A DNA stretch of 64,000 bases, taken from NCBI RefSeq assembly GCF_056746865.1, contig NZ_CM163382.1; one strand, given 5' to 3'. The notes under the pieces are model-generated. The model did not search any database. It was not told where the DNA came from and worked only from the letters and a program-made list of their open reading frames with translations. Of the stretch, positions 1 to 22,569 are shown one piece after another; within the stretch, counting starts at the first letter, position 1, and each line of letters begins with the position of its first letter. The position numbers and the translations under genes were made by a program.

Positions 1-702
1 TTCGCGCAGCGCGCCCGCCATTTCGTACTCGGACTGATCATATTTCAGCGGCGTGGCCCCCATCAGCGTGATGATCGGATCGTTACCGAGCGTGATCGCA
101 ATCGGCAGATCTTCACCGCGCTCTTCCGCTTTATGCAGATGCAGGGCAATATCGTGCATCGGCACCGGTTGCAGGCCGAGCTTACGTTTGCCTTTCACTT
201 CCATACGATAGATACCGACGTTCTGCTTGCCGAAGTTATCCGGGTCGAGCGGATCGCGGGAAACTACGCACGCTTTGTCGAGATAGAAACCGCCATCACC
301 GTCGTTTAAACGAAACAGTGGCAGAATATCGAACAGGTTAATCTCGTCGCCATCGACGGTGTTCTGCGCCCAGGCTGGATTGGCGCGGCGCTCCGGGGCA
401 ATGGGGAAGTTATCCCAGCGGCGGATAAACTCATCAATCTGTTTTTTAACCGGGGTGTTTGGCGGCAGGCCGAGGGAAATCGCGTGGTTCTGCCAGGAAC
501 CGATGGTGTTCATTGCCACGCGGGCATCGATAAAGCCGCGAATATTATCAAACCAAAGCGCGGGCGCGCCGTCGCCGATACGCCCGGTGGCGTTGGCTGC
601 GGCTGCCAGATCCGGTTCCGCGTTCACCTCTTCGCTGATTTTCAGTAACTGGCCGTGGTCATCAAGCGCCTGTAAAAAGCTGCGTAAATCATCAAATGCC
701 AT
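1..702 (-). CDS. UbiD-family decarboxylase (EcdC/YclC-like), 5' part only; gene runs off the window start
   Basis: Minus-strand translation from ATG at 700-702 reads MAFDDLRSFLQALDDHGQLLKISEEV..., typical UbiD-family N-terminus; start overlaps stop of upstream UbiX-like gene (ATGAATAATGG). Confidence 0.7.
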   Translation of the reverse strand, partial: MAFDDLRSFLQALDDHGQLLKISEEVNAEPDLAAAANATGRIGDGAPALWFDNIRGFIDARVAMNTIGSWQNHAISLGLPPNTPVKKQIDEFIRRWDNFPIAPERRANPAWAQNTVDGDEINLFDILPLFRLNDGDGGFYLDKACVVSRDPLDPDNFGKQNVGIYRMEVKGKRKLGLQPVPMHDIALHLHKAEERGEDLPIAITLGNDPIITLMGATPLKYDQSEYEMAGALRE

Positions 703-1295
703 TATTCATTCTCCTGAGAAAAATTCCGGGCCTGCGGCAATCCTTGCCAGCGCCTGGCGTGAGGATGTTCGAGGCCAAATTGATCCAGCACGCGGGCTAC
801 CACATGGTGGACAATGTCATCTACCGTTTCGGGATGGTTATAAAAGGCAGGCATCGGCGGCACCATCGCCACACCCATGCGCGAAAGTGCGAGCATATTT
901 TCGAGATGGATTGTGCTAAGCGGCATTTCACGCGGCACCAGCACCAGTTTGCGGCCTTCTTTGAGCACGACGTCCGCCGCGCGCCCTACGAGACCATCGG
1001 CGTAACCAGCGCGGATACCGGCGAGCGTTTTCATACTGCATGGAATAACGATCATGCCGTCGGTACGAAAGGAGCCGGAAGAGATAGTCGCAGCCTGATC
1101 CGCCGGGTTATGGCTGAAGTCTGCGAGGGCGGCAACATCGCGAGCGCTGTAAGGCGTTTCCAGTTCAATGGTGGTTTTCGCCCACTTCGACATCACCAGA
1201 TGAGTCTCGACATTCGGCATCTCCCGCAGCGCTTGCAGTAATGCCACCCCAAGAGGCGCACCGGTAGCCCCTGTCATCCCGACGATCAGTCTCAT
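702..1295 (-). CDS. UbiX/Pad1-like flavin prenyltransferase
   Basis: 197 aa ORF MRLIVGMTGATGAPLGVALLQAL..., canonical UbiX-family N-terminus and length. Confidence 0.85.
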   Translation of the reverse strand: MRLIVGMTGATGAPLGVALLQALREMPNVETHLVMSKWAKTTIELETPYSARDVAALADFSHNPADQAATISSGSFRTDGMIVIPCSMKTLAGIRAGYADGLVGRAADVVLKEGRKLVLVPREMPLSTIHLENMLALSRMGVAMVPPMPAFYNHPETVDDIVHHVVARVLDQFGLEHPHARRWQGLPQARNFSQENE

Positions 1296-1441
1296 TGTTT
1301 ATTCTCTTAATTGTTCGTATACGAACGTTATTATTAAAATACGCCTCTGTTTTCATCGCGGCAAGCACTGAAAAGTAACAACATCTTCTTCGTCACTGAA
1401 AAACCGCTATGATAGCGGCAGATAGTTTGCCCGGAGTTTAC

Positions 1442-1849
1442 ATGGCGTTACGAAATAAAGCGTTCCATCAGTTACGACAGCTTTTTCAGCAGCACACGGC
1501 TCGCTGGCAGCACGAGTTACCTGACCTCACCAAACCACAGTACGCGGTGATGCGCGCCATTGCTGATAAGCCTGGTATTGAACAGGTGGCACTGATAGAA
1601 GCAGCAGTCAGCACCAAAGCAACGCTGGCAGAAATGTTGGCAAGAATGGAAAATCGTGGCTTAGTCAGACGTGAACATGACGCCGCTGACAAGCGGCGAC
1701 GCTTTGTCTGGCTGACTGCCGAAGGAGAAAAGGTACTTGCTGCGGCGATACCGATTGGTGACAGTGTGGATGCGGAATTTTTGGGGCGTTTGAGTGGAGA
1801 AGAGCAGGAGCTGTTTATGCAGCTGGTGCGCAAGATGATGAGCAAATAG
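1442..1849 (+). CDS. MarR/SlyA-family transcriptional regulator
   Basis: ORF 1409..1849; probable start ATG 1442 after GGAG; winged-helix MarR-like sequence, divergent from the decarboxylase operon. Confidence 0.7.
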   Translation: MALRNKAFHQLRQLFQQHTARWQHELPDLTKPQYAVMRAIADKPGIEQVALIEAAVSTKATLAEMLARMENRGLVRREHDAADKRRRFVWLTAEGEKVLAAAIPIGDSVDAEFLGRLSGEEQELFMQLVRKMMSK

Positions 1850-1921
1850 GATGCTGATTGCCGGGTAGGACGCTGACGAGTCTTATCCAGGCGACAAAAC
1901 ACACCGACTTCCCAAACAAAA

Positions 1922-1956
1922 GAAAAAGGCCAGCCTCGCTTGAGACTGGCCTTTCT
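1922..1956. terminator. Bidirectional rho-independent terminator between the MarR-like gene and rpoS
   Basis: Inverted repeat AAAGGCCAG ... CTGGCCTTT flanked by A-run and T-run, between convergent gene ends. Confidence 0.5.
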
Positions 1957-1969
1957 GACAGATGCTTAC

Positions 1970-2962
1970 TTACTCGCGGAACAGCGCTTCGATATTCAGC
2001 CCCTGCGTTTGCAGGATTTCGCGCAAACGGCGCAGGCCTTCAACCTGAATCTGGCGAACACGTTCACGGGTGAGGCCAATTTCACGACCTACATCTTCCA
2101 GTGTTGCCGCTTCGTACCCCAGCAAACCGAATCGACGTGCCAGCACTTCACGCTGTTTGGCGTTCAGCTCGAACAGCCATTTGACGATGCTCTGCTTCAT
2201 ATCGTCATCTTGCGTGGTATCTTCCGGACCGTTCTCTTTTTCATCGGCCAGGATGTCCAGCAACGCTTTTTCGGAATCACCACCCAGCGGGGTGTCTACC
2301 GAGGTAATGCGCTCGTTAAGACGAAGCATACGGCTGACGTCATCAACTGGCTTATCCAGTTGCTCTGCGATCTCTTCCGCACTTGGTTCGTGGTCCAGTT
2401 TATGGGACAACTCGCGTGCGGTTCGCAGGTAAACGTTCAGCTCCTTTACGATGTGAATCGGCAAACGAATAGTACGGGTTTGGTTCATAATCGCCCGTTC
2501 GATCGTCTGGCGGATCCACCAGGTTGCGTATGTTGAGAAGCGGAAACCACGTTCCGGGTCAAACTTCTCTACCGCGCGGATCAGCCCCAGGTTGCCCTCT
2601 TCGATCAGGTCCAACAGCGCCAGACCACGATTGCCATAACGGCGGGCAATCTTCACGACCAGACGCAGGTTACTTTCAATCATCCGGCGACGTGAAGCGA
2701 CATCTCCACGCAGTGCGCGACGCGCGAAATAAACTTCTTCTTCGGCCGTTAACAGTGGCGAATAACCAATCTCACCAAGGTAAAGCTGAGTCGCGTCCAA
2801 CACACGCTGTGTGGCCCCTTGCGATAACAGCTCCTCTTCAGCCAAATCGTTATCACTGGGTTCCTCTTCAACTAAGGCTTTCTCGTCAAAAACCTCAACT
2901 CCGTTCTCATCAAATTCCGCGTCTTCATTTAAATCATGAACTTTCAGCGTATTCTGACTCAT
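1970..2962 (-). CDS. rpoS: RNA polymerase sigma factor RpoS (sigma-38), full length
   Basis: 330 aa [37 protein letters not shown]..., sigma-70 family regions 2-4 recognisable. Confidence 0.97.
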
Positions 2963-3024
2963 AAGGTGGCTCCTACCCGTGATCCCTTGACGGAACTAGC
3001 AAGCAAAAGCCTGGTTCCGCCGAA

Positions 3025-4164
3025 TTATCGCTGCGGTAAATAACGCAGCGGGTTTACGGATTTCCCCTTGTAACGAATTTCAAAATGCAAGCGTGTTGAA
3101 CTGGTTCCGGTGCTACCCATGGTTGCTATTTTTTGCCCCGCCTTCACTTCTTGTTGTTCCCGGACCAGCATTGTGTCGTTATGGGCGTAGGCACTCAGGT
3201 AATCATCATTATGTTTGATGATAATCAGATTACCGTAGCCGCGCAGCGCGTTACCGGCATAAACAACGCGGCCATCTGCGGTCGCGATAATTGCCTGTCC
3301 TTTGCTGCCTGCGATATCAATCCCCTTGTTGCCCCCCTCAGAAGCGCCAAAGGTTTCGATCACTTTGCCCTCAGTCGGCCAGCGCCAGGTGGAGATAGGC
3401 GTACTGGTTGATGTACTGCTGACAGTCGGCTCGGTTGTGCTTGCTGTTGGTACCGTTACAGGCGCTGTGACCGTGGTCGCAGTTGGCTTGTTGTTCGGCA
3501 ACATTTTGTTAGCACTCTGTTCACCCGAAGACTCAGAATACGTAATTGTCGGTTGCGACGCAACAGCAACGGTGGAATTTTGTGCAGGCTTGATCACAAC
3601 TCCTTGCTCTGCTGCGTCGGCCTGGGTAATGGCATTTCCGCCAGTGATTGGCGTACCGGAAGCATTACCCACCTGTAAGGTCTGACCGACGTTCAGCGCG
3701 TATGGTGCCTGAATATTGTTGCGCTGAGCAAGGTCACGGAAATCGTTGCCAGTAATCCAGGCGATATAGAAAAGTGTGTCGCCTTTTTTCACGGTATAGG
3801 TACTGCCGCTATAACTGCCTTTCGGAATGTTCCCATACTGACGGTTATAGACGATGCGTCCGTTTTCCATCTGTACCGGCTGCTGAGCTACTGGCTGTAC
3901 TGGCTGGATTTGCGGTTGTTGAGTAGCCTGAATTTGTGGCTGCTGTACCGGCTGAATTTGCGGTTGCTGCGCTGTAGACGTCGTTCCCATTTTCGGCGGT
4001 GGCGTAATCAACATACCAGAATTGGTATTTGCAGGCGCATTGCCATTAACGGAGCTTACCGGTGCCGGTGGATTTGAAGTGTCAGAACAGCCTGCCAGCC
4101 ATAGCGAAACCAGTGACAAAGCCGCAATGCGGCGAACGGTGAATTTTGGGCTTCCCGCGCTCAT
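3025..4164 (-). CDS. nlpD: Murein hydrolase activator lipoprotein NlpD (LysM + M23 domain)
   Basis: 379 aa, lipoprotein signal LAGCS, QPQIQ proline/glutamine repeats, C-terminal M23 peptidase-like region. Confidence 0.95.
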
Positions 4165-4303
4165 TTATCCCCCAGGAAAAATTGGTTAATAACCAGTGAC
4201 ATAATTACCGTGCAAGGCACCATACTGAACACTGGAAAAGATGTTCACGATACGCTGACCTGCGGCAAAATAACCAGGAAAAATCCAGGTATTTCCTCAC
4301 GTT

Positions 4304-5665
<1,362 letters not shown>

Positions 5666-5685
<20 letters not shown>

Positions 5686-6715
5686 AATCACCTGTTGTGT
5701 TGATAAGTTCCCTGACAACGCTGGTTGCAAAACTACCCGCCGGAAGCCAGAAACGGATTTCTACGGTGACGTCATCCCACCAGTTCCAGCTTAATTGTTG
5801 CGGATACAGCAGCATCGCTCTGCGCGCGGCTTCAACTTTTTCGCGCACCAGTAAGGCTTGTAATTCAGTTTCTGCGGCGACAGCTGCTTGTTCGAATGCC
5901 AACGCTTCACGCTGAGTTCCCCATTCGCCACTGCCCGGCAATGCGGCGGTTATCATCAGCTCTTTATCGTTGACGCGACGCTGTAATTCCGCCAGTTCTT
6001 CGGTGGTTGCGACAAACCAGCTACCACGTCCGGCTAATTGTAGCGCATCGCCGTCAACAACTTGATTAACGTCTGCTTTTTTGAGGCGCTCAGCAACAAT
6101 CTGATTAAACAACGCACTGCGGGCTGCCGACAACCAAAAACTCCGTTTATTGCGATCGCGCACCGGAGTATTGGTTTGCGCCCAGCGCAGCGCGCCCTGC
6201 AAGTTGCTACCGCCAATCCCGAAACGTTGGGCACCGAAGTAGTTCGGTACACCTTTTACGCAAATATCGATCAGACGTTGTTCAACGTCATCGCGATTGC
6301 TCACTTCGCGCAGAACCAGGGTAAAGGCGTTACCTTTCAGCGCCCCTAAACGCAGCTTGCGCTTGTGCCGCACATACTCCAGCACCTGGCAGCCTTCCAG
6401 TTGAAAGGCGCTCAGATCGGGCATTTCCTTGCCCGGCACGCGAGCACATAACCACTGTTCCGTTACAGCATGTTTGTCTTTTTGCCCAGCGAAGCTGACT
6501 TCACGGGCATGAATTTTCAGGAATTTCGCCAGTGCATCCGCCACAAAACGGGTATTGCAGCCGTTTTTGAGGATTCTAACCAGAATATGCTCACCTTCAC
6601 CATCAGGCTCAAAGCCCAAATCTTCCACCACCACAAAGTCTTCCGGATTGGCTTTCAGCAACCCGGTGCCTTGCGGTTTACCGTGGAGGTAAGTGAGATT
6701 ATCAAACTCAATCAT
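5666..6715 (-). CDS. truD: tRNA pseudouridine(13) synthase TruD
   Basis: 349 aa [32 protein letters not shown]... Confidence 0.93.
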
Positions 6716-7191
6716 TTTGTTGCCTTAATGAGTAGCGCCACCGCTTCACAGGCAATCCCTTCCCCACGTCCGGTAAATCCAAGTTTTTCCGTAGTAGTGG
6801 CTTTCACGTTAACATCATCCATATGGCAGCCGAGATCTTCGGCAATAAACACGCGCATTTGTGGTATGTGCGGCAACATCTTCGGTGCCTGAGCGATGAT
6901 AGTGACATCGACGTTGCCCAGCGTATAACCCTTCGCCTGAATACGACGCCAGGCTTCGCGTAGCAGCTCGCGGCTGTCGGCACCTTTAAATGCCGGATCG
7001 GTATCCGGGAACAGCTTGCCGATATCCCCCAGCGCCGCCGCGCCAAGCAATGCATCGGTCAACGCATGGAGCGCCACGTCGCCATCAGAATGCGCCAGCA
7101 ATCCTTTTTCGTAAGGAATGCGTACGCCACCAATGATAATTGGGCCTTCACCGCCAAAGGCGTGTACGTCAAAACCGTGTCCAATTCGCAT
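6712..7191 (-). CDS. ispF: 2-C-methyl-D-erythritol 2,4-cyclodiphosphate synthase
   Basis: 159 aa [42 protein letters not shown]... Confidence 0.95.
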
Positions 7192-7901
7192 TATGTATTC
7201 TCCTGATGGATGGTTCGGGTGAGGTAAAACTCGGCCAGTGCCAAATCTTCCGGGCGCGTGACTTTAATGTTATCCGCGCGGCCTTCGACCAACTGCGGAT
7301 GAAATCCGCAATATTCCAGCGCCGAGGCTTCGTCGGTAATGGTAGCGCCTTCATTTAGAGCGCGCGTCAGGCAGTCATGTAACAGCTCACGAGGGAAAAA
7401 TTGCGGCGTCAGCGCGTGCCATAAGCCGTTGCGATCAACGGTATGAGCAATAGCATTTTTGCCCGGTTCGGCACGTTTCATCGTATCGCGCACTGGTGCG
7501 GCGAGGATCCCCCCCGTGCGGCTGGTTTCGCTCAACGTCAACAATCGCGCGAGGTCATCCTGATGCAGACAAGGACGAGCGGCGTCATGCACCAATACCC
7601 ACTGCGCGTCGCCAGCGGCTTTCAGACCTGCCAGCACCGAATCGGCACGCTCATCACCGCCATCTACAACGGTGATTTGCGGATGATTCGCCAGAGGAAG
7701 TTGTGCAAAACGGCTATCGCCAGGACTTATGGCAATGACGACACGTTTCACCCGGGGATGCGCCAGCAGCGCATGCACCGAGTGTTCAAGAATGGTTTGA
7801 TTACCGATTGAGAGATATTGCTTAGGACATTCCGTTTGCATTCGACGGCCAAATCCGGCCGCCGGAACCACGGCGCAAACATCCAAATGAGTGGTTGCCA
7901 T
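7191..7901 (-). CDS. ispD: 2-C-methyl-D-erythritol 4-phosphate cytidylyltransferase
   Basis: 236 aa ORF with [20 protein letters not shown] motif; stop overlaps ispF start. Confidence 0.95.
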
Positions 7902-7919
7902 GTTAATTCCCGGGCTGAT

Positions 7920-8231
7920 TTATCGATTGTTTTGCCCCGCAGACTGTGCGCGCTTCGACGCGTCAGGCACCAGACGATAAAAAGTTTCGCCCGGCCTGGT
8001 CATGCTGAGTTCATTACGCGCACGCTCTTCGAGCGCCTCCTGGCCGCCATTGAGATCGTCAATTTCGGCAAAAAGTTGATCGTTTCGCGCTTTAAGTTTC
8101 GCGTTTGTAGCTTGCTGTGCCGCCACATCATCATTGACGCGGGTATAGTCATGTATACCGTTCTTACCGAACCACAGCGAATACTGTAGCCAGACCAGAA
8201 TAGCCAGCAACAGCAGCGTTAGTTTACCCAT
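7920..8231 (-). CDS. ftsB: Cell division protein FtsB
   Basis: 103 aa, N-terminal TM segment plus coiled coil, [25 protein letters not shown]... Confidence 0.93.
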
Positions 8232-8424
8232 CCTGCCCCCTGAAAAACGGCATCATCATCCCATGCATCCGAAGACGACTCTACATCCTCTGTTGGGGAT
8301 ACCGCGACAACGCGGGCAAATGTACCACATTTGTCCATTGTTACGTATACCCAGGGCGTGCAGAACATAATCTCATTATTAGTTACGGTTTGAATTATGA
8401 ACAGAGGAGACAAGAAAGTACAAA

Positions 8425-8748
8425 TTAGCCCAGTAGCCACATAAACAGTGCGCCAAACATAATGCCTACTGTCATCAGGGTGAAAACAATACTGTAGCGT
8501 AGCTTTCCGTCCATCAATGAATGCAGCGCAATCCCCACCACTACTGCGACAGGCATCAGTGCCAGAAAGAAAGGCCAGGTGTAGATAAAGAAGAACAGCG
8601 TGTTAGAGCCATAAATCAACATCGGCATCGCCAGCGCAAATAACCAGGAGATAAAACCGACCACGGCACCAGGCAGTGACCATGTGGTTTCTTCATCCTC
8701 AGTAAGGCTGTCGTTATTTGTTAGTGTAATGTTATGGCTATTACGCAT
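8425..8748 (-). CDS. ygbE: Inner membrane protein YgbE (DUF3561)
   Basis: 107 aa, multiple hydrophobic helices, conserved position between ftsB and cysC. Confidence 0.8.
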   Translation of the reverse strand: MRNSHNITLTNNDSLTEDEETTWSLPGAVVGFISWLFALAMPMLIYGSNTLFFFIYTWPFFLALMPVAVVVGIALHSLMDGKLRYSIVFTLMTVGIMFGALFMWLLG

Positions 8749-8797
8749 ATTTGATCCTGTTACTTTGACGAACCGGGCATGGAAACCCGGTGGTGTC

Positions 8798-9403
8798 TCA
8801 GGATCTGATAATATCGTTCTGTCTCAACAGATCTAATAATTGCTGTACCAAATTTGTTACTAATTGTTCACCATTGAGATGAATTTCTGCCGATTCAGGC
8901 GCTTCGTAAACGGAATCTATTCCCGTAAAGTTGCGCAGTTCACCGGCACGCGCTTTCTTATATAAGCCTTTTGGATCGCGGGCTTCGCAAATCGCCAGCG
9001 GCGTATCGACAAATACTTCGATAAAGCGCCCTTCTCCTACGCGTTCACGAACCATCTGGCGTTCGGCGCGGTGTGGCGAGATGAATGCGGTCAGCACCAC
9101 CAGTCCGGCTTCAACCATCAAATTCGCCACTTCACCGACGCGACGGATATTCTCTTTACGATCGGCATCGCTAAAACCGAGATCGCTGCATAATCCGTGG
9201 CGAACATTGTCGCCATCCAGCAGATACGTACTGACGCCGAGTTTATGTAACGCCTCCTCCAGCGCCCCGGCGACCGTTGATTTACCGGACCCGGAGAGGC
9301 CGGTAAACCACAGCACTACACCACGATGACCGTGGTGTAGCTCGCGTTGTTGTACAGTGACTGGATGGCTATGCCAGACGACGTTTTCGTCATGCAGCGC
9401 CAT
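8798..9403 (-). CDS. cysC: Adenylyl-sulfate kinase
   Basis: 201 aa, P-loop GLSGSGKST. Confidence 0.95.
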
Positions 9404-10830
9404 TATTTATCCCCCAGCAAATCGCGTGCGCCCCAGTGCGGAAAGTGGCGACGAACCAGGGCATTCAATTCCAGTTCAAATGCACTGAATTCAGATGGCG
9501 CAGCAGTTGCCTGGCTAACTGGCTCGTGCACCATACCGGCACCCACGGTCACATTGCTCAGGCGATCGATAAAAATCAGCCCACCGGTAACCGGATTTTG
9601 CTGATAACGATCTAACACCAGTGGCTCGTCAAAAGTGAGATCCACCAGGCCGATGCCGTTCAGCGGCAGGTTTTCAACTTCGCGTTGGGTAAGGTTATTA
9701 ATATCAACCTGATAACGAATACCATCAACACGAGCACGCGTCTTCTTACCGGCAATTTTGATGTCATAACTCTGGCCCGCGGAAAGCGGCTGTTCCGCCA
9801 TCCATACCACATCCACCGACGCGCTCTGCACAGCCGGTAACGCTTCGTCTGCCGCCAGCAGCAGATCGCCACGGCTGATGTCGATCTCATCCGTCAGCAC
9901 TAGGGTGATCGCTTCTCCGGCAAAGGCTTCTTCGCGATCGCCATCAAAAGTCACGATCCGCGCGACGTTTGATTCCACACCAGAGGGCAGCACTTTGACA
10001 CGTTGCCCGACTTCCACTCGACCGGATGCCAGCGTTCCGGCGTAGCCACGAAAATCGAGATTCGGGCGATTAACGTACTGCACCGGGAAGCGCATTGGCT
10101 GGGCATCCACCACTCGCTGGATCTCCACGGTTTCCAGCACTTCGAGCAGTGTCGGACCGCTGTACCACGGCATACTTTCACTTTGCGAAGCCACGTTGTC
10201 GCCTTCCAGTGCAGAGAGCGGCACAAAGCGGATATCCAGATTACCCGGCAGCTGCCCGGCAAACGTCAGATAATCTTCGCGAATACGGGTGAACGTCTCT
10301 TCACTGTAACCCACCAGATCCATTTTGTTGATCGCCACGACCAGATGTTTGATCCCCAACAGTGTGGAGATAAAACTGTGACGACGGGTTTGATCGAGCA
10401 CGCCTTTACGGGCATCGATCAGTAAGATCGCCAGTTCACATGTCGATGCGCCAGTCGCCATATTGCGAGTGTACTGCTCGTGCCCTGGGGTATCGGCGAT
10501 AATAAATTTACGCTTCTCGGTAGAGAAATAACGGTAAGCCACGTCAATGGTGATGCCCTGTTCGCGCTCAGCTTGCAGGCCGTCCACCAGCAGAGCCAGA
10601 TCCAGCTTTTCGCCCTGGGTGCCGTGACGCTTACTGTCGTTATGCAGCGATGAGAGCTGATCTTCGTAGATTTGGCGGGTATCGTGCAGCAGACGACCAA
10701 TCAGGGTACTTTTTCCGTCATCGACGCTACCACAAGTCAGAAAACGCAGCAGGCTTTTATGTTGTTGCGCAATCATCCAGGCTTCGACGCCGCCTTCATT
10801 GGCGATTTGTTGTGCAAGTGCGGTGTTCAT
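9403..10830 (-). CDS. cysN: Sulfate adenylyltransferase subunit 1 (GTPase)
   Basis: 475 aa, GTPase motifs [18 protein letters not shown]. Confidence 0.95.
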
Positions 10831-10831
10831 C

Positions 10832-11740
10832 TTAAAAATACCCCTGACGTTTTTTCAACTCCATGGATCCCGCCTGGTCGCGGTCAATCACGCGACCCTG
10901 ACGTTCACTGGTGGTGGAAACCAGCATCTCTTCGATGATTTCCGGCAGTGTTTGTGCATTTGACTCCACCGCACCGGTCAGCGGCCAGCAGCCCAGCGTA
11001 CGGAAACGCACCATCCGTTTTTTAATCACTTCTCCCGGTTGCAGGTCGATACGGTTGTCATCAATCATCATCAACATACCGTCGCGTTCCAGAACCGGTC
11101 GTTCCGCAGCGAGATACAGTGGAACAATGTCAATATTTTCCAGCCAGATGTATTGCCAGATATCCTGCTCGGTCCAGTTAGAGAGCGGGAAGACGCGGAT
11201 GCTTTCGCCTTTGTTAATTTGCCCGTTGTAGTTGTGCCACAGCTCCGGGCGCTGATTTTTCGGATCCCAGCGATGGAAGCGGTCACGGAAAGAGTAGATT
11301 CGCTCTTTAGCGCGGGATTTCTCTTCGTCGCGGCGCGCACCACCGAAGGCGGCATCAAAACCGTATTTGTTCAGCGCCTGTTTCAGGCCTTCAGTTTTCA
11401 TAATATCGGTATGTTTCGCGCTGCCATGAACGAATGGATTAATCCCCATCGCTACGCCTTCCGGGTTTTTATGCACCAGCAGCTCGCAGCCGTAGGCTTT
11501 AGCCGTACGATCGCGGAACTCATACATCTCGCGGAATTTCCAGCCGGTATCGACATGCAGCAACGGGAAAGGCAGCGTACCTGGATAAAACGCCTTGCGC
11601 GCCAGATGCAGCATGACGCTGGAATCTTTACCGATAGAGTAGAGCATCACCGGATTTGAGAATTCTGCCGCCACCTCGCGAATAATGTGGATGCTTTCCG
11701 CCTCCAGTTGCCGCAGGTGAGTAAGTCGTTTTTGATCCAT
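10832..11740 (-). CDS. cysD: Sulfate adenylyltransferase subunit 2
   Basis: 302 aa, PAPS-reductase-like fold, [23 protein letters not shown]... Confidence 0.95.
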
Positions 11741-11991
11741 AACCGTTCCTTTGCAATACCGCTATTTTCTTGCCATCAGATGTTTCGACTATAGGGAGCG
11801 CAGGAGAACGAATGAAATTACCAATTAGAATGAGTAGTTCCTTAACGGAATAACGATTTGGCAAAGCTAATATCAAAAAGTGCTTAAGGCACCGGATTTC
11901 GGGCGTTTAGGAAGATTTGAAATTGTTTTAGCGCATCGGCAGTTTCATACTATGGCGGTAAAAAAATTTGCATGGTATTTAAGGACTCACT

Positions 11992-13029
11992 ATGTTTTCC
12001 GCATTGCGCCACCGTACCGCTGCCCTGGCGCTCGGCGTATGCTTTATTCTCCCCGTACACGCCTCGTCATCTAAACCTGGCGATTTTGCTAATACTCAGG
12101 CACGACATATTGCTACTTTCTTTCCGGGACGCATGACCGGAACTCCAGCAGAAATGTTATCTGCCGATTATATTCGCCAACAGTTTCAGCAAATGGGTTA
12201 TCGCAGTGATATTCGGACATTTAATAGTCGGTATATTTATACCGCCCGCGATAATCGCAAGAGCTGGCATAACGTGACGGGAAGTACGGTGATTGCCGCT
12301 CATGAAGGCAAAGCGCCGCAGCAGATCATCATTATGGCGCATCTGGATACTTACGCCCCGCTGAGCGATGCTGACGCCGATGCCAATCTCGGCGGGCTGA
12401 CGTTACAAGGAATGGATGATAACGCCGCAGGTTTAGGTGTCATGCTGGAATTGGCAGAACGCCTGAAAAATACGCCTACCGAGTATGGTATTCGATTTGT
12501 GGCGACCAGTGGTGAAGAGGAAGGGAAATTAGGTGCTGAGAATTTACTCAAGCGGATGAGTGACACCGAAAAGAAAAATACGCTGCTGGTGATTAATCTC
12601 GATAACTTAATTGTTGGCGATAAATTGTATTTCAACAGCGGCGTAAAAACCCCTGAAGCAGTAAGGAAATTAACGCGCGACAGGGCGCTGGCAATTGCGC
12701 GTAGTCATGGAATTGCCGCAACGACCAATCCGGGTTTGAATAAAAATTATCCGAAGGGTACTGGCTGTTGTAATGACGCCGAAGTTTTCGACAAAGCCGG
12801 TATTGCCGTACTTTCGGTAGAAGCAACAAATTGGAATCTTGGGAATAAGGATGGTTATCAGCAACGCGCAAAAACAGCTGCATTCCCTGCGGGAAATAGC
12901 TGGCATGACGTAAGACTGGATAATCAACAACATATTGATAAGGCACTTCCAGGAAGAATAGAACGTCGCTGCCGTGATGTTATGCGGATAATGCTACCGC
13001 TGGTGAAGGAGCTGGCGAAGGCGTCTTGA
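11992..13029 (+). CDS. iap: Alkaline phosphatase isozyme conversion aminopeptidase (M28 family)
   Basis: 345 aa with signal peptide; conserved neighbour of the type I-E CRISPR array. Confidence 0.9.
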   Translation: MFSALRHRTAALALGVCFILPVHASSSKPGDFANTQARHIATFFPGRMTGTPAEMLSADYIRQQFQQMGYRSDIRTFNSRYIYTARDNRKSWHNVTGSTVIAAHEGKAPQQIIIMAHLDTYAPLSDADADANLGGLTLQGMDDNAAGLGVMLELAERLKNTPTEYGIRFVATSGEEEGKLGAENLLKRMSDTEKKNTLLVINLDNLIVGDKLYFNSGVKTPEAVRKLTRDRALAIARSHGIAATTNPGLNKNYPKGTGCCNDAEVFDKAGIAVLSVEATNWNLGNKDGYQQRAKTAAFPAGNSWHDVRLDNQQHIDKALPGRIERRCRDVMRIMLPLVKELAKAS

Positions 13030-13110
13030 TGGGTTTGAAAATAGGAGCTGGGAGTTCTACCGCAGGGGCGGGGAACTCCAAGTGATGTCCATCATCGCAT
13101 CCAGTGCGTC

Positions 13111-14176
13111 CGGTTTATCCCCGCTGACGCGGGGAACACACATGAATGTCGGTTCAGACCGTGTTTTTACCCGGTTTATCCCCGCTGGCGCGGGGAACAC
13201 TGCCTCGGCGGCGGCTCTGCGCAACCGCGAAACGGTTTATCCCCGCTGGCGCGGGGAACACGTTAAACCGTGATGATCAGCAAAAGCTATTTCCGGTTTA
13301 TCTCCGCTGACGCGGGGAACACGTCAATAGGCGGCGTCCCGTAGCCGTCCCCTTCGGTTTATCCCCGCTGGCGCGGGGAACACTTGAAATGGTCCAGCAC
13401 TGCGACCGTCGGCCCCGGTTTATCCCCGCTGGCGCGGGGAACACGCTGGTGGCGCGGGCAAACGGAACAATCCCGCCGGTTTATCCCCGCTGGCGCGGGG
13501 AACACGCTAACCTATAACACGGAAAATCACACGCTAACGGTTTATCCCCGCTGGCGCGGGGAACACGGCCATTCCCCCAAGCAGACGCAGGAAGTTAACG
13601 GTTTATCCCCGCTGGCGCGGGGAACACCTGGATTTCACCTCAGCAAATGCTGGATGTGGCGGTTTATCCCCGCTGGCGCGGGGAACACCACCCCTGATAT
13701 TTTTGCCACCGTGGTTACTCCGGTTTATCCCCGCTGGCGCGGGGAACACAGAAATCAAACTCAGCGTGCAAATGGGGTAGCCGGTTTATCCCCGCTGGCG
13801 CGGGGAACACTTGCGTTATTTCTATCTGGTGAGTCGCGGCACCGGTTTATCCCCGCTGGCGCGGGGAACACGTATTTTTTATCGTCGCATGAGTCGCGGT
13901 AACCGGTTTATCCCCGCTGGCGCGGGGAACACTTCTGCCGCGCCAGCAAACGTATCGGCGGTCACGGTTTATCCCCGCTGGCGCGGGGAACACCCCAGGC
14001 CAAGCATTATATCCTGTGCGTCGTTCGGTTTATCCCCGCTGGCGCGGGGAACACACCAAGAAGCTGACGAATCAGCCCGACACGCACGGTTTATCCCCGC
14101 TGGCGCGGGGAACACCCAGTTTCATATGAGCCGCCGCGCTGGATCATCGGTTTATCCCCGCTGGCGCGGGGAACAC
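13111..14176 (-). CRISPR. Type I-E CRISPR array: 18 repeats of 29 bp (CGGTTTATCCCCGCTGGCGCGGGGAACAC on + strand), 17 spacers of 32 bp; leader at high-coordinate end
   Basis: Regular 61-bp periodicity read directly. Repeats at 13111 and 13294 carry variants (GCTGACGCG; 13294 also ATCTCC). A degenerate terminal repeat lies at about 13050-13078. Confidence 0.97.
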
Positions 14177-14272
14177 ACTAAGCATACATAACTGTTTTTA
14201 AACAAATTTATTCCGCATCAACAATCTACCAACTAAATTAAAACATTTCCTTATTTTTAAAGAACAGATAAC
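14177..14272 (-). promoter_or_regulatory. CRISPR leader (AT-rich) between array and cas2
   Basis: AT-rich ~95 bp immediately adjacent to the last perfect repeat and downstream of cas2. Confidence 0.7.
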
Positions 14273-15482
<1,210 letters not shown>

Positions 15483-15486
<4 letters not shown>

Positions 15487-16133
15487 GCCTCTGCTCCGGG
15501 TTTGATCAGCATCAGACCACAGCCGAACGCGCGGCTTTTGCCATACCCCTGGCTCAGACGTTGCAGAAATAACCCGGGATCGGTGACCGTAAGCATCCCC
15601 GTATAATCCACGCTACTGAACTGGATCAGTTGCCGGGAGTTTTCCCGCCACAGTTGCTGTTGTCGGTAGGCATCAACCGAGGTATCCAGCAGTGTAAAAC
15701 CGCTTCTCTCCCCCTGCGCTGCCAGCCAGTCCAGCGCCGCCTGTTGTTGATGCAACCAGACATCACTTCCTTCCGCCTGCCCCCTCACCTGCCGTTTCGC
15801 CTCCATCAGCAGATCGTGGCGCTTGCCCGCTTTACAGATTGTTGGATTCGCCCGCAGGTTGAAACAAAGTTGTTGTCCGGTACGCAGCTCGGGCACAAAT
15901 GACCGGCATTCGATGGTGAACGTTTCACTTTCTGCCGGGCGTTCCTGCGACAGTACAAAAAAGCGAAACGCGCCCTGGAGTTCTTCCCGACGATAAAGAA
16001 ATTGCCTTTCTTTGCCGCCAGGGAAGAGATCCCACAGCCACTGATGCATCACATATTCCCCGCGATCCACCAGATGCAGCAACTGCGCAGGCGAAAGCTG
16101 GCCGGTATGTAAGGTTATTCTTGAGAGGTACAT
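15483..16133 (-). CDS. cas6e: Cas6e/CasE crRNA endoribonuclease (divergent I-E variant)
   Basis: Start at MYLSRITLHTGQ (ATG 16131-16133, GGAGG upstream); C-terminal ...GYGKSRAFGCGLMLIKP glycine-rich motif typical of Cas6e. Confidence 0.88.
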
Positions 16134-16810
16134 GGTTCCTCCTTGCTGAGCCACGGCCCCTGATTGACGGTGCGTTCCCCAAACAACCATTGCTGACGAT
16201 TTAAAGGAACATCCCGGCGGCGCAATATTTTGCTCGCGACCAGGCCGTCGTGCTCCCCTTCCCACCAGCATTCATCCTGAAGTTTCGGGAGTGCGATTTT
16301 CAGGTCGTGGAAATGCTCCTGATACTGGTGATATGCGTTACGTAAAACATCAGACGCGTTGCCTTCAAGCAGTAACGGCGCAAGTGGTAATGCCAGCGGA
16401 TGACTTTTTCGCCCCAGATAAAGCGGAAAAACTGGATGGCGTAAACCGCCCTGCAACTGTTCGAGGCTGTAAGGCGCATCGGCTGTTGTTGCCACCGCCA
16501 CCATCCACCAGGCGTCGGTGTAGTAGTCGCGCCGGGAGATAATCGCGCTCAGAAGATCAGGGTCGCTCAACTCTTCGCGACGGCTGAAATAACGCGCTTT
16601 ACGCACCTCTTTTGGCATCTGGATTGTGTGATAATCCCGTGCCCAGCGCGGGTTACGGCTGGCGCAAACCACCAGTGAATAGTGGCGGTTAAACACGTTT
16701 AATCGTTCGGTATCATCACGCCGAATCCCTACCCCGGCAGCCAGCAGCCCCAGCAATGCTGAGCGCGAAGGCAGTTCATGGGTATGACGCACTTCGCCCG
16801 CTCCAAACAA
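16115..16810 (-). pseudogene. cas5: cas5e/casD remnant lacking about 20-25 N-terminal codons; fused to island att core
   Basis: Cas5e-like body (...LPSRSALLGLLAAGVGIRRDD..., ...LYLGRKSHPLALPL...) but the frame opens with only a TTG 3 codons after a stop, and the first codons overlap the 15-bp att repeat. Confidence 0.8.
16792..16806. repeat. att core direct repeat (left copy), CTTCGCCCGCTCCAA
   Basis: Identical 15-mer recurs at 36704-36718; matches the acceptor-stem/CCA end of a tRNA. Confidence 0.6.
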
Positions 16811-16969
16811 ACATTTCTCAACGTCTACTGAAGTCCATCAAATCCACGAATATCAAGCCTTTCAGCCATTTTCATAGCTTATTAACGTCTACTCACAACT
16901 ACCAGAATCTACACACAGAAGTGTATAGTAATGCGTATAGGACAAAATTTATTTTTTGGAGCTATACAC

Positions 16970-18184
16970 ATGCTGCTTTCAGACCTTGCTATCAGGCGCG
17001 CGAAGCCGAAAGAAAAGGCTTATACACTCAATGACGGTAACGGGCTTTCGTTACTCATTGAGCCGAACGGCTCGAAAGGGTGGCGACTACGTTACAGATT
17101 TGCAGGAAAGCCCAAAATGTTGTCGTTGGGCGTGTACCCTGATGTGTCTCTGTCTGATGCCAGAGCGGCAAGGGATGAGGCTAAAAGGCTTCTTGCTGGT
17201 GGTATAAATCCAAGTGAGGCCAGAAAAGCTCAAAAGCGAGAACAGGCGAGCAAATTTGGCAATACTTTTGAGGGTATCGCTCGCGAATGGTATGAAAAGC
17301 GGATCGACAGGTGGTCATCGTCATACGCCGAGGAAATGATCGAGACGTTTGAAAAAGACGTTTTTCCGTACATTGGCGGCAGGCCGATCGCAGAAATTAA
17401 GCCAATGGAGTTGCTTGCGGTTCTCTCCCGTCTTAATGACCGTGGGGCGACCGAAAAATTGCGTAAGGTTCGCCAGCGATGCGGCGAGGTGTTCCGGTAC
17501 GCAATCATCACCGGACGCGCTGAATATAACCCCGCACCAGATCTGGCAAGCGCATTTGCTCCACACAAAAAAGAGCATTATGCCTATTTGAAGGCCGACG
17601 AACTGCCGGAATTTTTCCGCGTTCTTAATACGTACACCGGAAGCCAGATCGTCAAGCTGGGTATGCGATTATTGATTCTGACAGGGCTCCGGCCAGGGGA
17701 ATTACGACAGGCAGAATGGCAGGAGATCGATTTTGATAATCGTTTGTGGGAAGTGCCTAAAGAACGAATGAAGATGCGCCGTCCTCATTGTGTGCCGCTT
17801 TCAGAACAGGCGATCGCTATTCTGGAACAGTTAAAACACATGACGGGGCAGTATCAGTTTATTTTCCCTGGTCGAATCCAGCACAGTAAGCCGATGAGTG
17901 AAATGGCGATGAACGTGCTTATTCGTCGTATTGGCTATTCTGGGCGCGTTACTGGTCATGGGTTCCGGCACACGATGAGCACGATTTTACATGAGCAGGG
18001 CTATAACACCGCGTGGATAGAAACGCAGCTTGCACACGTTGATAAGAACTCAATTCGTGGCACGTACAATCATGCGCAATATCTGGACGGGCGGCGCGAG
18101 ATGCTCCAGTGGTACGCCGACTATATGGACTCACTGGAACAGGGCGGCAACGTGGTGCATGGCAAGTTCGGAAAATGTGGATGA
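16970..18184 (+). CDS. int: Tyrosine recombinase, P4-type integrase
   Basis: ORF 16931..18184; start taken at MLLSDLAIRRAKPKEKAYTLNDGNGLSLLIEPNGSKGWRLRY... (ATG 16970); C-terminal catalytic region with HGFRHT and Y. Confidence 0.93.
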   Translation: MLLSDLAIRRAKPKEKAYTLNDGNGLSLLIEPNGSKGWRLRYRFAGKPKMLSLGVYPDVSLSDARAARDEAKRLLAGGINPSEARKAQKREQASKFGNTFEGIAREWYEKRIDRWSSSYAEEMIETFEKDVFPYIGGRPIAEIKPMELLAVLSRLNDRGATEKLRKVRQRCGEVFRYAIITGRAEYNPAPDLASAFAPHKKEHYAYLKADELPEFFRVLNTYTGSQIVKLGMRLLILTGLRPGELRQAEWQEIDFDNRLWEVPKERMKMRRPHCVPLSEQAIAILEQLKHMTGQYQFIFPGRIQHSKPMSEMAMNVLIRRIGYSGRVTGHGFRHTMSTILHEQGYNTAWIETQLAHVDKNSIRGTYNHAQYLDGRREMLQWYADYMDSLEQGGNVVHGKFGKCG

Positions 18185-18312
18185 CTGGTTGAGTATACAG
18201 TAGTAGACTTTGAGCGACGAAAGAAAAAGCTGTGTCTAGGGTCGCTCCCGAAAAACCGTATACCTCGACGGGCTGGCACAGCCACTACAGTAGAGGACGC
18301 TGAGGTGTGCGT

Positions 18313-22266: not shown

Positions 22267-22569
22267 ATGAAGAAGATTAAATTTACTGGCTTAAATGCCA
22301 GCGGACAGACTCACCCGAAAATCAGGATCGGGGATATTTTCCGGGATAAATATGGTGACAGCGTGGTTATTAATTCCGTGTATGAACGGCACATTACATA
22401 CCGCCGCGCAGGGTACGACTATGACTGTGTGATGCCCGTTCATCAGTTCCGGCGTGATTTTTCACTGGTATGTGCAGCACCACGCAGTAAGCCCACCAGT
22501 AAAGAGAAAGCACGGGCAAATATTCAGGTAATAAAGAACATGATTAACGCATTCAGGGGCAAGAAATGA
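22267..22569 (+). CDS. Hypothetical protein (100 aa)
   Basis: ORF overlapping primase start; tight spacing with neighbours. Confidence 0.45.
   Translation: MKKIKFTGLNASGQTHPKIRIGDIFRDKYGDSVVINSVYERHITYRRAGYDYDCVMPVHQFRRDFSLVCAAPRSKPTSKEKARANIQVIKNMINAFRGKK

Follow-up and report, generated by a model that had tools for sequence, protein, structure and literature searches.

Hydroxyarylic acid decarboxylases of the VdcBCD (Streptomyces), BsdBCD (Bacillus subtilis), and ShdBCD (Sedimentibacter hydroxybenzoicus) systems share a three-gene B-C-D architecture with EcdBCD of Escherichia coli. They also have in common with EcdBCD an ERE-type motif, four cysteines in the D subunit, and a need for prenylated FMN (prFMN) from a UbiX-type partner. 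However, EcdBCD has another regulator and another genomic setting, HosA and the linkage to rpoS being enterobacterial. The canonical UbiD and UbiX proteins belong to the same superfamilies as EcdC and EcdB and use the same cofactor chemistry, but EcdBCD differs from them in having a soluble rather than a prenylated substrate and an extra D subunit, and in being dispensable and polymorphic. Other names in use for the locus are slyA/hosA-pad1-yclC, kpdBCD, vdcBCD, and the HAD operon.

The hosA-ecdBCD module itself is already known from published work (Herbelin 2000; Lupa 2005; Ewers 2014; HosA studies). In E. coli O157:H7, EcdBCD is encoded by a 2.9-kb segment of the mutS-rpoS region, described as slyA-pad1-yclC. 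For EcdCD of E. coli O157:H7, StdBCD of Salmonella, and KpBCD of Klebsiella, the table of 4-hydroxybenzoate decarboxylases in PMC6644310, citing Lupa 2005, gives two common substrates (codes 49a and 57a). The HosA literature describes HosA as a repressor of the HAD operon that is released from DNA by 4-hydroxybenzoate (4-HBA), with a KD of about 4.7 µM, and mentions an effect of HosA on motility in EPEC. Given this reported motility effect, the HosA regulon may be wider than the ecd operon.

Gene organization of the locus

The window analyzed here is a stretch of 64,000 nucleotides from contig NZ_CM163382.1 (NCBI RefSeq assembly GCF_056746865.1). Positions 1-1849 can be identified with high confidence as the rpoS-proximal part of the hosA-ecdBCD locus, which comprises genes for a 4-HBA-sensing repressor and a hydroxyarylic acid decarboxylase. 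This analysis itself established the identities of the genes, their motifs, the operator sequence, the distribution of the module in the population, and the synteny across genera. O157:H7 carries the same genes in the same order, likewise directly 3ʹ of rpoS. The original prediction had placed, directly downstream of rpoS, a pair of UbiD-like and UbiX-like genes and a MarR regulator divergent from them; open reading frames, NCBIfam, and Pfam all agree with this, with half of the UbiD-like gene lying inside the window. To that description can be added that a third enzyme subunit is needed and that the MarR protein is the characterized regulator HosA.

Both decarboxylase genes within the window lie on the minus strand. 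The UbiD-family gene ecdC (yclC/kpdC/vdcC) runs from 702 to 1 and continues past the window start, where it is truncated after codon 234 of 475, so that only residues 1-234 fall within the window. The UbiX-family gene ecdB (pad1/kpdB/vdcB; 1295 to 702) opens the operon and is complete, encoding 197 aa; its stop codon and the ecdC ATG overlap by one base (TAATG, 704-700). The remainder of ecdC, as well as ecdD, which is located beyond the window start, 3ʹ of ecdC, and encodes the 78-aa zinc-ribbon subunit D, were read from strain 118UI, whose sequence matches window positions 1-16798 with 100% identity. On the plus strand, hosA (1442-1849) encodes a 135-aa protein of the MarR/SlyA family (Pfam MarR, PF01047) and is convergent with rpoS, placing the module directly 3ʹ of that gene. 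The conserved neighbor outside the module, rpoS (2962 to 1970, minus strand), is an intact open reading frame of 330 aa with Glu at codon 33; its counterpart in 118UI, a strain identical to the window here, is annotated as RpoS WP_000081550.1. A terminator scan located the rpoS intrinsic terminator hairpin, a 15-pair stem followed by a T run, at 1923-1956 on the minus strand. In 118UI, the gene order is mutS, a Sel1-repeat gene, pphB, ecdD, ecdC, ecdB, hosA, and rpoS.

Opposite-strand open reading frames over ecdC, ecdB, and hosA (e.g., 359-919 and 696-1241 on the plus strand and 1486-1902 on the minus strand) were rejected as non-genes, the annotated frames having overwhelming family support. 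An Rfam search of window positions 1-2000 returned no RNA family. As a separate observation, a junction lies near 16.8 kb in the window; it may reflect an integrase-mediated inversion, whose reciprocal junction would join the 5ʹ part of glyU to the remainder of cas5e, or an assembly artefact. The 38-nt junction had no exact match in the metagenome contigs scanned, and three large island proteins noted there matched nothing in PADLOC, Pfam, or NCBIfam.

Decarboxylase subunits

The 234 codons of ecdC in the window begin with MAFDDLRSF, the N-terminus of the 475-aa 118UI protein WP_000863184.1. This full-length protein scores 788.5 bits against the NCBIfam VdcC model NF041204 (cutoff 650), covering residues 4-469 of 475, and matches Pfam UbiD_N, UbiD, and UbiD_C. 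Among solved structures, its best relative is VdcC in the vanillic acid decarboxylase entries 7AE4, 7AE5, and 7AE7, with which it aligns over the full length (E 1e-159). A pattern search located the motif G163-I-Y-R166 within the window and E269-GPFG-E274 outside it. By analogy, R166 together with E269 and E274 would constitute the catalytic Glu-Arg-Glu (ERE) motif of UbiD enzymes, and we take these residues to correspond to R173, E277, and E282 of Fdc1. The ERE motif of UbiD enzymes is named in PMC8379154.

EcdB scores 312.8 bits against the NCBIfam VdcB model NF041206 (cutoff 290), passes UbiX subfamily models, and matches Pfam Flavoprotein; its score against the BagM/FevK model is higher than against the VdcB model, yet below that model's own cutoff (344 vs 420). 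It is identical at 195 of 197 residues to PDB 1SBZ, the Pad1 protein of E. coli O157:H7. EcdD scores 121.2 bits against the NCBIfam VdcD model NF041205 (cutoff 30) and contains two CxxC knuckles, CPRC at 3-6 and CQHC at 28-31, with its cysteines at the same positions as the zinc ligands C3, C6, C28, and C31 given for ShVdcD in PMC8379154. The same paper describes VdcC activity as strictly dependent on VdcD. The VdcC, VdcB, and VdcD model scores are all far beyond chance; AroY-type and BagM/BagN assignments were dropped on scores. With all frames intact and the proteins near-identical to characterized ones, we infer that the ecd/hosA copy of this strain is functional, and the strain is predicted to decarboxylate 4-HBA and vanillate when induced.

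HosA and the divergent control region

The control region shared by ecdB and hosA is a 146-bp non-coding segment (1296-1441) between the two divergent start codons. It contains the HosA operator, a perfect 14-bp palindrome, GTTCGTATACGAAC, at 1313-1326, which precedes the ecdB ATG by 18 bp. This palindrome is the site present in the published HosA-binding oligonucleotides of PMC6261655, and window positions 1308-1334 (TTAATTGTTCGTATACGAACGTTATTA) are found in the HosA-binding oligonucleotides of its supplement. The palindrome was read directly from the sequence, and a hairpin scan reports a stem at 1312-1327; an automated inverted-repeat search of 1280-1460 reported no repeat, although the palindrome is present there. 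A second short palindrome, ACCGCTATGATAGCGGC (1403-1419), precedes the hosA ATG by 23 bp; it was reported by a terminator-like scan with a 7-bp stem on the minus strand, and its sequence is unrelated to that of the HosA operator. Because a consensus scan found no strict-consensus sigma-70 promoter in 1250-2000, control region included, promoter positions are taken from the literature.

HosA of the window is identical at 131 of 134 residues to PDB 8AGA, "Transcriptional regulator HosA" (E 1.5e-82), and six further entries also match. The three substitutions relative to 8AGA, E111A, A119G, and N134S, lie near the C-terminus and are neither known nor expected to alter function. The operator and the sequence around it match those for HosA of E. 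coli UMN026 and E2348/69, and hosA is likewise divergent from the decarboxylase operon. The hosA start was taken as 1442 (MALRNK) because the PGAP annotation and the crystallized protein both begin there; the 146-aa version of the reading frame, starting at 1409, probably carries 11 surplus codons.

In the proposed mechanism, EcdB, a UbiX-type flavin prenyltransferase, would make prFMN, with which the UbiD-type EcdC would catalyze reversible, non-oxidative CO2 removal, converting 4-HBA to phenol and vanillate to guaiacol. EcdC would be active only when complexed with the small zinc-ribbon subunit EcdD. HosA, bound to the palindrome between the promoter region and the ecdB start codon, would hold the ecd operon off, and reportedly its own gene as well. 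Binding of 4-HBA would then take HosA off the DNA, such that the substrate would induce its own decarboxylase. The literature supplies the range of substrates, the need for subunit D, repression by HosA, and the response to 4-HBA. In E. coli, the reaction may serve detoxification, pH control, or the carboxylation of phenol.

Distribution and locus forms in E. coli

The rpoS-mutS interval was expected to be polymorphic in E. coli, and four main rpoS-proximal configurations indeed account for 5371 of 5426 complete genomes. The module adjoins pphB, as in the clone of the window, in 794 genomes, O157 included, and adjoins ygbN in 1593. The K-12 type (1944 genomes) is without the module, and the B2 type (1040 genomes) has other genes in its place. 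The absence of the module from K-12, likewise foreseen, is evident in MG1655, where ygbN is followed by a 93-bp spacer and then rpoS. At least 80% of the segment is present in 2379 of the 5426 genomes (approximately 44%) and the module is absent from 56%, showing that it is not universal at this site. In the 2379 carriers, the module is always chromosomal and never on a plasmid; these carriers include water, wastewater, farm animal, and meat isolates as well as clinical strains. The original prediction that the module marks a non-K-12 lineage is therefore true but weak: with 44% carriers in two contexts, it does not mark any single lineage.

The right edge of the polymorphic segment falls at 1917-1924, at the base of the rpoS terminator hairpin; the match to the window begins only at 1924 in K-12-type genomes and only at 1917 in B2-type genomes. 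At the K-12 junction, a deletion appears to have begun at the ecdD stop codon and reached the rpoS terminator, and 8 bp of filler are found.

The form carried by the clone of the window, its left part read in 118UI, is mutS-rpoS pattern I (the O157:H7/EHEC 1 type), with no ygbN by rpoS, ecdD adjoining pphB/mutS, and hosA by rpoS. The pattern definitions are those given in Ewers 2014 (PMC4209514). In O157:H7 and the window clone alike, pphB adjoins ecdD without the ygbI-N cluster. However, the pphB-ecdD junctions of the two are only 88% identical, and 118UI has the Sel1-repeat gene between mutS and pphB in addition to the O157 form; the two short forms are thus related but different alleles. 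At this classical polymorphic locus, the strain can thus be typed as an O157-like short mutS-rpoS form that is neither K-12 nor B2. The gain is a set of current frequencies for the four locus forms across 5426 complete genomes; beyond annotation, the module is of little importance and is ordinary.

Enzyme class and evolutionary origin

The historical annotation "pad1, phenylacrylic acid decarboxylase" would make the module a Pad1/Fdc1-type decarboxylase of phenylacrylic (cinnamic or ferulic) acids, and EcdB is in fact related to yeast PAD1 (6QLG, E 6e-64), while the Fdc1 matches attest that UbiD enzymes of such a type exist. This is nevertheless very improbable: EcdC is far nearer to VdcC than to Fdc1 (about 1e-22 to 1e-27) or AroY (~1e-27), a gene is present for the VdcD subunit, which is specific to hydroxyarylic acid enzymes, UbiX/Pad1 proteins are described in PMC6644310 as cofactor synthases and not decarboxylases, and the regulator responds to 4-HBA according to the literature. 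Membership in the same protein families and matches to E. coli UbiD structures (E 1e-47) could also point to a spare ubiquinone-pathway UbiD/UbiX pair acting on 3-octaprenyl-4-hydroxybenzoate, but the chance of this is slimmer still. EcdC reaches 173.5 bits on the UbiD equivalog model NF008175 (PRK10922) against a cutoff of 788, VdcD and a 4-HBA-responsive repressor are present, and over half of complete genomes dispense with the module.

The hydroxyarylic acid decarboxylase module belongs to the ancestral make-up of the rpoS-mutS interval in Enterobacteriaceae, and the K-12/group A type lost it through an old deletion; this loss and the absence of the module from the B2 type produce the known presence/absence polymorphism. 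Both its ancestry at the locus and its loss in K-12 follow from the synteny seen in other genera of Enterobacteriaceae. In 51 of 80 species-representative genomes, nearly all of them Enterobacteriaceae, rpoS is no more than 6 kb from ecdC, and rpoS and mutS both flank the module in 42. The same four genes are found near rpoS in Citrobacter, Klebsiella, Enterobacter, Kluyvera, Kosakonia, Atlantibacter, Franconibacter, Mangrovibacter, and others. On either side of the module, gaps of just 50-150 bp are seen in many genera, and often the interval is otherwise empty. This breadth is hard to reconcile with a horizontally acquired, pathogen-associated islet consisting of a SlyA-like virulence regulator and its cargo, inserted by rpoS in pathogenic lineages. 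Such an origin is highly unlikely, even though K-12 and many commensal-type genomes are without the module, a 2024 preprint states that hosA moved horizontally from Shigella into pathogenic E. coli, and HosA affects EPEC motility. The 118UI locus map has no mobility genes, integrase, IS, or tRNA boundaries at the module, the GC content of the module (0.554) is near that of its flank (0.529), and the K-12 junction resembles a clean deletion. Moreover, the module is on no plasmid, and its carriers are environmental and animal as well as clinical.

In support of ancestry, the cross-genus synteny agrees with the deletion scenario of Herbelin 2000, as quoted in later papers, and contradicts the claim of the preprint. 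The B2 form probably arose through replacement of the module by other genes. The term "accessory," originally applied to the module, holds in the pangenome sense only and fails as to origin, the module being ancestral at the site and lost by K-12.

Across dozens of genera, rpoS and hosA are linked tail to tail with one common hairpin (1923-1956 in the window). That this linkage has been kept by selection for functional coupling is a long shot; such coupling may operate through hosA read-through antisense into the rpoS 3ʹ end or through dependence of RpoS on its local context, and if it were real, loss of the module in K-12 and B2 would have subtly altered rpoS expression. The conserved linkage can equally be explained as plain ancestral synteny.

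The hosA–ecdBCD module beside rpoS

Directly 3ʹ of an intact rpoS (2962 to 1970, minus strand; 330 aa, Glu33) lie a UbiD-like/UbiX-like gene pair and a divergent MarR-family gene, as the original prediction held and the gene reading of the window confirms, with two caveats: the UbiD-like gene, ecdC, crosses the window start, so that the window contains only half of it, and the set includes a third small gene, ecdD, encoding subunit D. The 5ʹ part of ecdC (702 to 1, minus strand) is an uninterrupted open frame of 234 codons beginning MAFDDLRSF, and its ATG shares one base with the stop codon of the upstream UbiX-like gene, ecdB (1295 to 702, minus strand; 197 aa). A 146-bp spacer separates ecdB from the plus-strand MarR-family gene, hosA (1442–1849; 135 aa). 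A mechanical ORF list places the hosA start at 1409, longer than annotated; the start used here, MALRNK, is that of the NCBI annotation of an identical genome and of the crystallised protein. Past rpoS follow nlpD, pcm, surE, truD, ispF, ispD, ftsB, ygbE and cysCND. The window matches strain 118UI (NZ_CP032515) at 100% identity across 1–16798, and the full locus of that strain reads mutS, a Sel1-repeat gene, pphB, ecdD, ecdC, ecdB, hosA and rpoS.

All four module genes are already named by PGAP, and their products are readily placed. EcdC (475 aa) scores 788.5 bits against the NCBIfam VdcC model (cutoff 650), matches all three Pfam UbiD domains and carries motifs typical of UbiD enzymes, namely the Arg in G-I-Y-R166 and E269-GPFG-E274. 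Among solved structures, the nearest to EcdC is VdcC from the vanillic acid decarboxylase VdcCD (7AE4, E 1e-159), and much weaker matches were obtained for E. coli UbiD (1e-47), for AroY-type enzymes and for Fdc1 (about 1e-27). Assignment of EcdC as the UbiD of ubiquinone synthesis was rejected, its score of 173.5 bits falling far short of the equivalog cutoff of 788. EcdB scores 312.8 bits against VdcB (cutoff 290) and is identical at 195 of 197 residues to "Pad1" of E. coli O157:H7 (PDB 1SBZ). EcdD (78 aa) scores 121 bits against VdcD (cutoff 30), and its CxxC pairs at residues 3–6 and 28–31 exactly match the positions of the zinc ligands in Sedimentibacter VdcD.

The regulator is HosA, sharing 131 of 134 residues with the "Transcriptional regulator HosA" of PDB 8AGA and of six other entries. 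Its operator, a perfect 14-bp palindrome (GTTCGTATACGAAC), occupies 1313–1326, with the ecdB start codon 18 bp downstream; a hairpin scan also detected it, as 1312–1327. A HosA biosensor paper (PMC6261655) lists among its supplementary oligonucleotides the sequence TTAATTGTTCGTATACGAACGTTATTA, which is identical to window 1308–1334, and a longer probe from that paper corresponds to the minus strand between about 1350 and 1291. The hairpin scan returned a second palindrome, unrelated to GTTCGTATACGAAC, at 1403–1419, upstream of hosA.

The stretch separating the hosA stop codon from the rpoS terminator contains an imperfect, putatively REP-like palindrome, GCCGGGTAGGACGCTGACGAGTCTTATCCAGGC (1860–1892). 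In the B2-type locus described below, a related copy occupies the equivalent position behind the flavodoxin gene.

The mechanism proposed for the module comes from the literature, and the gene anatomy of the locus is consistent with it. UbiX-type proteins make prenylated FMN, which UbiD-type enzymes use for reversible nonoxidative (de)carboxylation (PMC6644310). VdcC is inactive without VdcD, which binds tightly as an allosteric activator, and the VdcCD holoenzyme, which is sensitive to oxygen, has 4-hydroxybenzoate and vanillate as substrates (PMC8379154). The 4-hydroxybenzoate decarboxylase table in PMC6644310, citing Lupa 2005, assigns two common substrates (codes 49a and 57a) to O157:H7 EcdCD, Salmonella StdBCD and Klebsiella KpBCD. 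HosA from strain UMN026 is described as repressing the operon and its own gene from a palindromic site downstream of the transcription start, from which 4-hydroxybenzoate releases it. EMSA and ITC of HosA have been reported, with a KD of about 4.7 µM (PMC6261655). HosA was reportedly first described for its effect on motility in EPEC.

Distribution in E. coli

At least 80% of window 1–1969 is present in 2379 of 5426 complete E. coli genomes (44%), always on the chromosome; in the remaining genomes, the match is limited to the last 46–113 bp, the rpoS terminator region. Junction-specific queries against the same 5426 genomes distinguished four forms of the locus: the pphB–ecdD junction found in the window and in O157 (794 genomes), the long form with a ygbN–ecdD junction, for example in O111:H8 (1593), the K-12 form in which ygbN directly adjoins rpoS (1944), and the B2 form, in which an MBL-fold hydrolase and a flavodoxin gene lie between ygbN and rpoS (1040). 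Together, these account for 5371 genomes and correspond, in that order, to the patterns that Ewers et al. 2014 number I, IV, II and III, a scheme that in turn goes back to Herbelin 2000 and Culham & Wood 2000. The rpoS–mutS interval is thus polymorphic, and the module is far from universal in the species. K-12 lacks it, since MG1655, checked directly, has the K-12 form, whose junction reads as a clean loss of 2.9 kb between the ecdD stop codon and the base of the rpoS terminator, where 8 bp of filler remain. The proposal that the module marks a non-K-12 lineage is supported, with the refinement that 44% of complete genomes carry it, in two contexts.

Rare derivative forms also occur, among them an IS91-associated truncation. 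In strain 2013C_3964, an IS91-family element with a truncated ecdC remnant (9901–11796 of that locus) stands in place of ecdB, hosA and most of ecdC, whereas ecdD is retained; 10 kb away, iap is disrupted by another copy of this IS91 unit. This locus is an example of continuing module erosion. Compared at the pphB–ecdD junction, O157 and the window's clone share only 88% identity, so the "short" mutS–rpoS form has at least two diverged versions. To the left of the window, the Sel1-repeat protein gene between mutS and pphB in 118UI (9442–10305 of that locus; 287 aa) is missing from the K-12, O111:H8 and MS8345 maps.

Ancestry of the module

A single scan of species-representative genomes with EcdC yielded 80 loci. 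In 51, rpoS lies within 6 kb of ecdC, and in 42, both rpoS and mutS flank the module. In Citrobacter, Atlantibacter, Klebsiella indica, Enterobacter, Cedecea and Kosakonia, among others, the gaps on either side are only 50–150 bp, and hosA–ecdBCD alone makes up the entire rpoS–mutS interval. Salmonella arizonae, Salmonella diarizonae and Phytobacter carry the module in inverted orientation with respect to rpoS, and species of the Klebsiella oxytoca group, Enterobacter and Leclercia have an insert of about 2.6 kb between rpoS and hosA. Outside the family, Rahnella, Pantoea, Erwinia and a Vibrio keep the four genes clustered, but not near rpoS. A preprint has claimed that hosA was horizontally acquired from Shigella; this cross-species synteny argues against such an origin, as do the GC content of the module, which is close to that of its flank (0.554 and 0.529), and the lack of mobility genes bordering it. 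The evidence supports an ancestral rather than acquired module, with the segment lost in K-12, as published, and suggests that pphB and ygbI–N, rather than the decarboxylase genes, entered the interval later.

The amino acid identity of EcdC between E. coli and other Enterobacteriaceae genera is 95–99%, and it is still 88–92% in Rahnella, Pantoea and even a Vibrio. These values are comparable to or higher than those for MutS (88–96%), whereas HosA identity is only 68–80% across the same Enterobacteriaceae genera and 50–80% over all EcdC loci of other species. EcdC is under very strong purifying selection, though the enzyme is dispensable in 56% of E. coli. All essentials of the module were already known from the literature and standard annotation; the refinements are the gene cut at the window edge, the third subunit, HosA with its operator, the 44% occurrence in two contexts and the ancestral state.

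The junction at 16.8 kb and the adjoining island

As far as 16798, many genomes match the window at 100% identity; there, inside cas5e of a type I-E CRISPR-Cas operon, the window diverges from these otherwise identical relatives. From 16792 onward, it matches other strains at 99.7%, running from the 3ʹ 14 bp of tRNA-Gly (glyU) through a P4-like integrase island to the ETT2 type III secretion locus, a region normally more than 100 kb away in the opposite orientation. Exactly at the switch (16792–16798), both partners share the 7 bp CTTCGCC, as expected if a tyrosine integrase had made a crossover at a secondary att site. In orientation, the two sides agree with an inversion spanning more than 100 kb from cas5e to glyU and not with a deletion, because the intervening DNA contains essential genes. 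Searches of complete E. coli genomes and of metagenome contigs did not recover the junction. It could reflect a genuine inversion confined to the source strain or a chimeric assembly artefact. The CRISPR array lies at about 13111–14176, and cas1e (14563–15486, minus strand) has an internal stop at codon 200, being annotated as a pseudogene in the identical strain 118UI as well. Judged from this stop and the break in cas5e, the type I-E system of the source strain looks nonfunctional.

The P4-like integrative island (16931–38300), which is found at glyU in other strains, encodes a tyrosine integrase (16931–18184), an int-alpA RNA (18229–18296; Rfam RF02996) and a DUF927 primase-like protein (22566–24692), together with AntA/BRO-N proteins, an Icd-like protein, an SSB and a ProQ/FinO protein. 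Three consecutive large genes at 27693–35040 encode proteins of 843, 686 and 925 aa for which Pfam, NCBIfam and PADLOC gave no match. They match only PHROG families, described as virion-protein families: 992 ("head protein", E 4e-289), 1145 (unknown function) and 684 ("virion structural protein", E 2e-295). These putative virion-type genes are an unusual cargo for a P4-like element. The ETT2 locus (39150–64000) has a low GC content of 0.31–0.42 and includes sctC, the gatekeeper gene, sctV, sctN and sctR/S/T/U, among others. In strain SCU-105, ETT2 is likewise continuous with the island, and several of its ETT2 genes are frameshifted.
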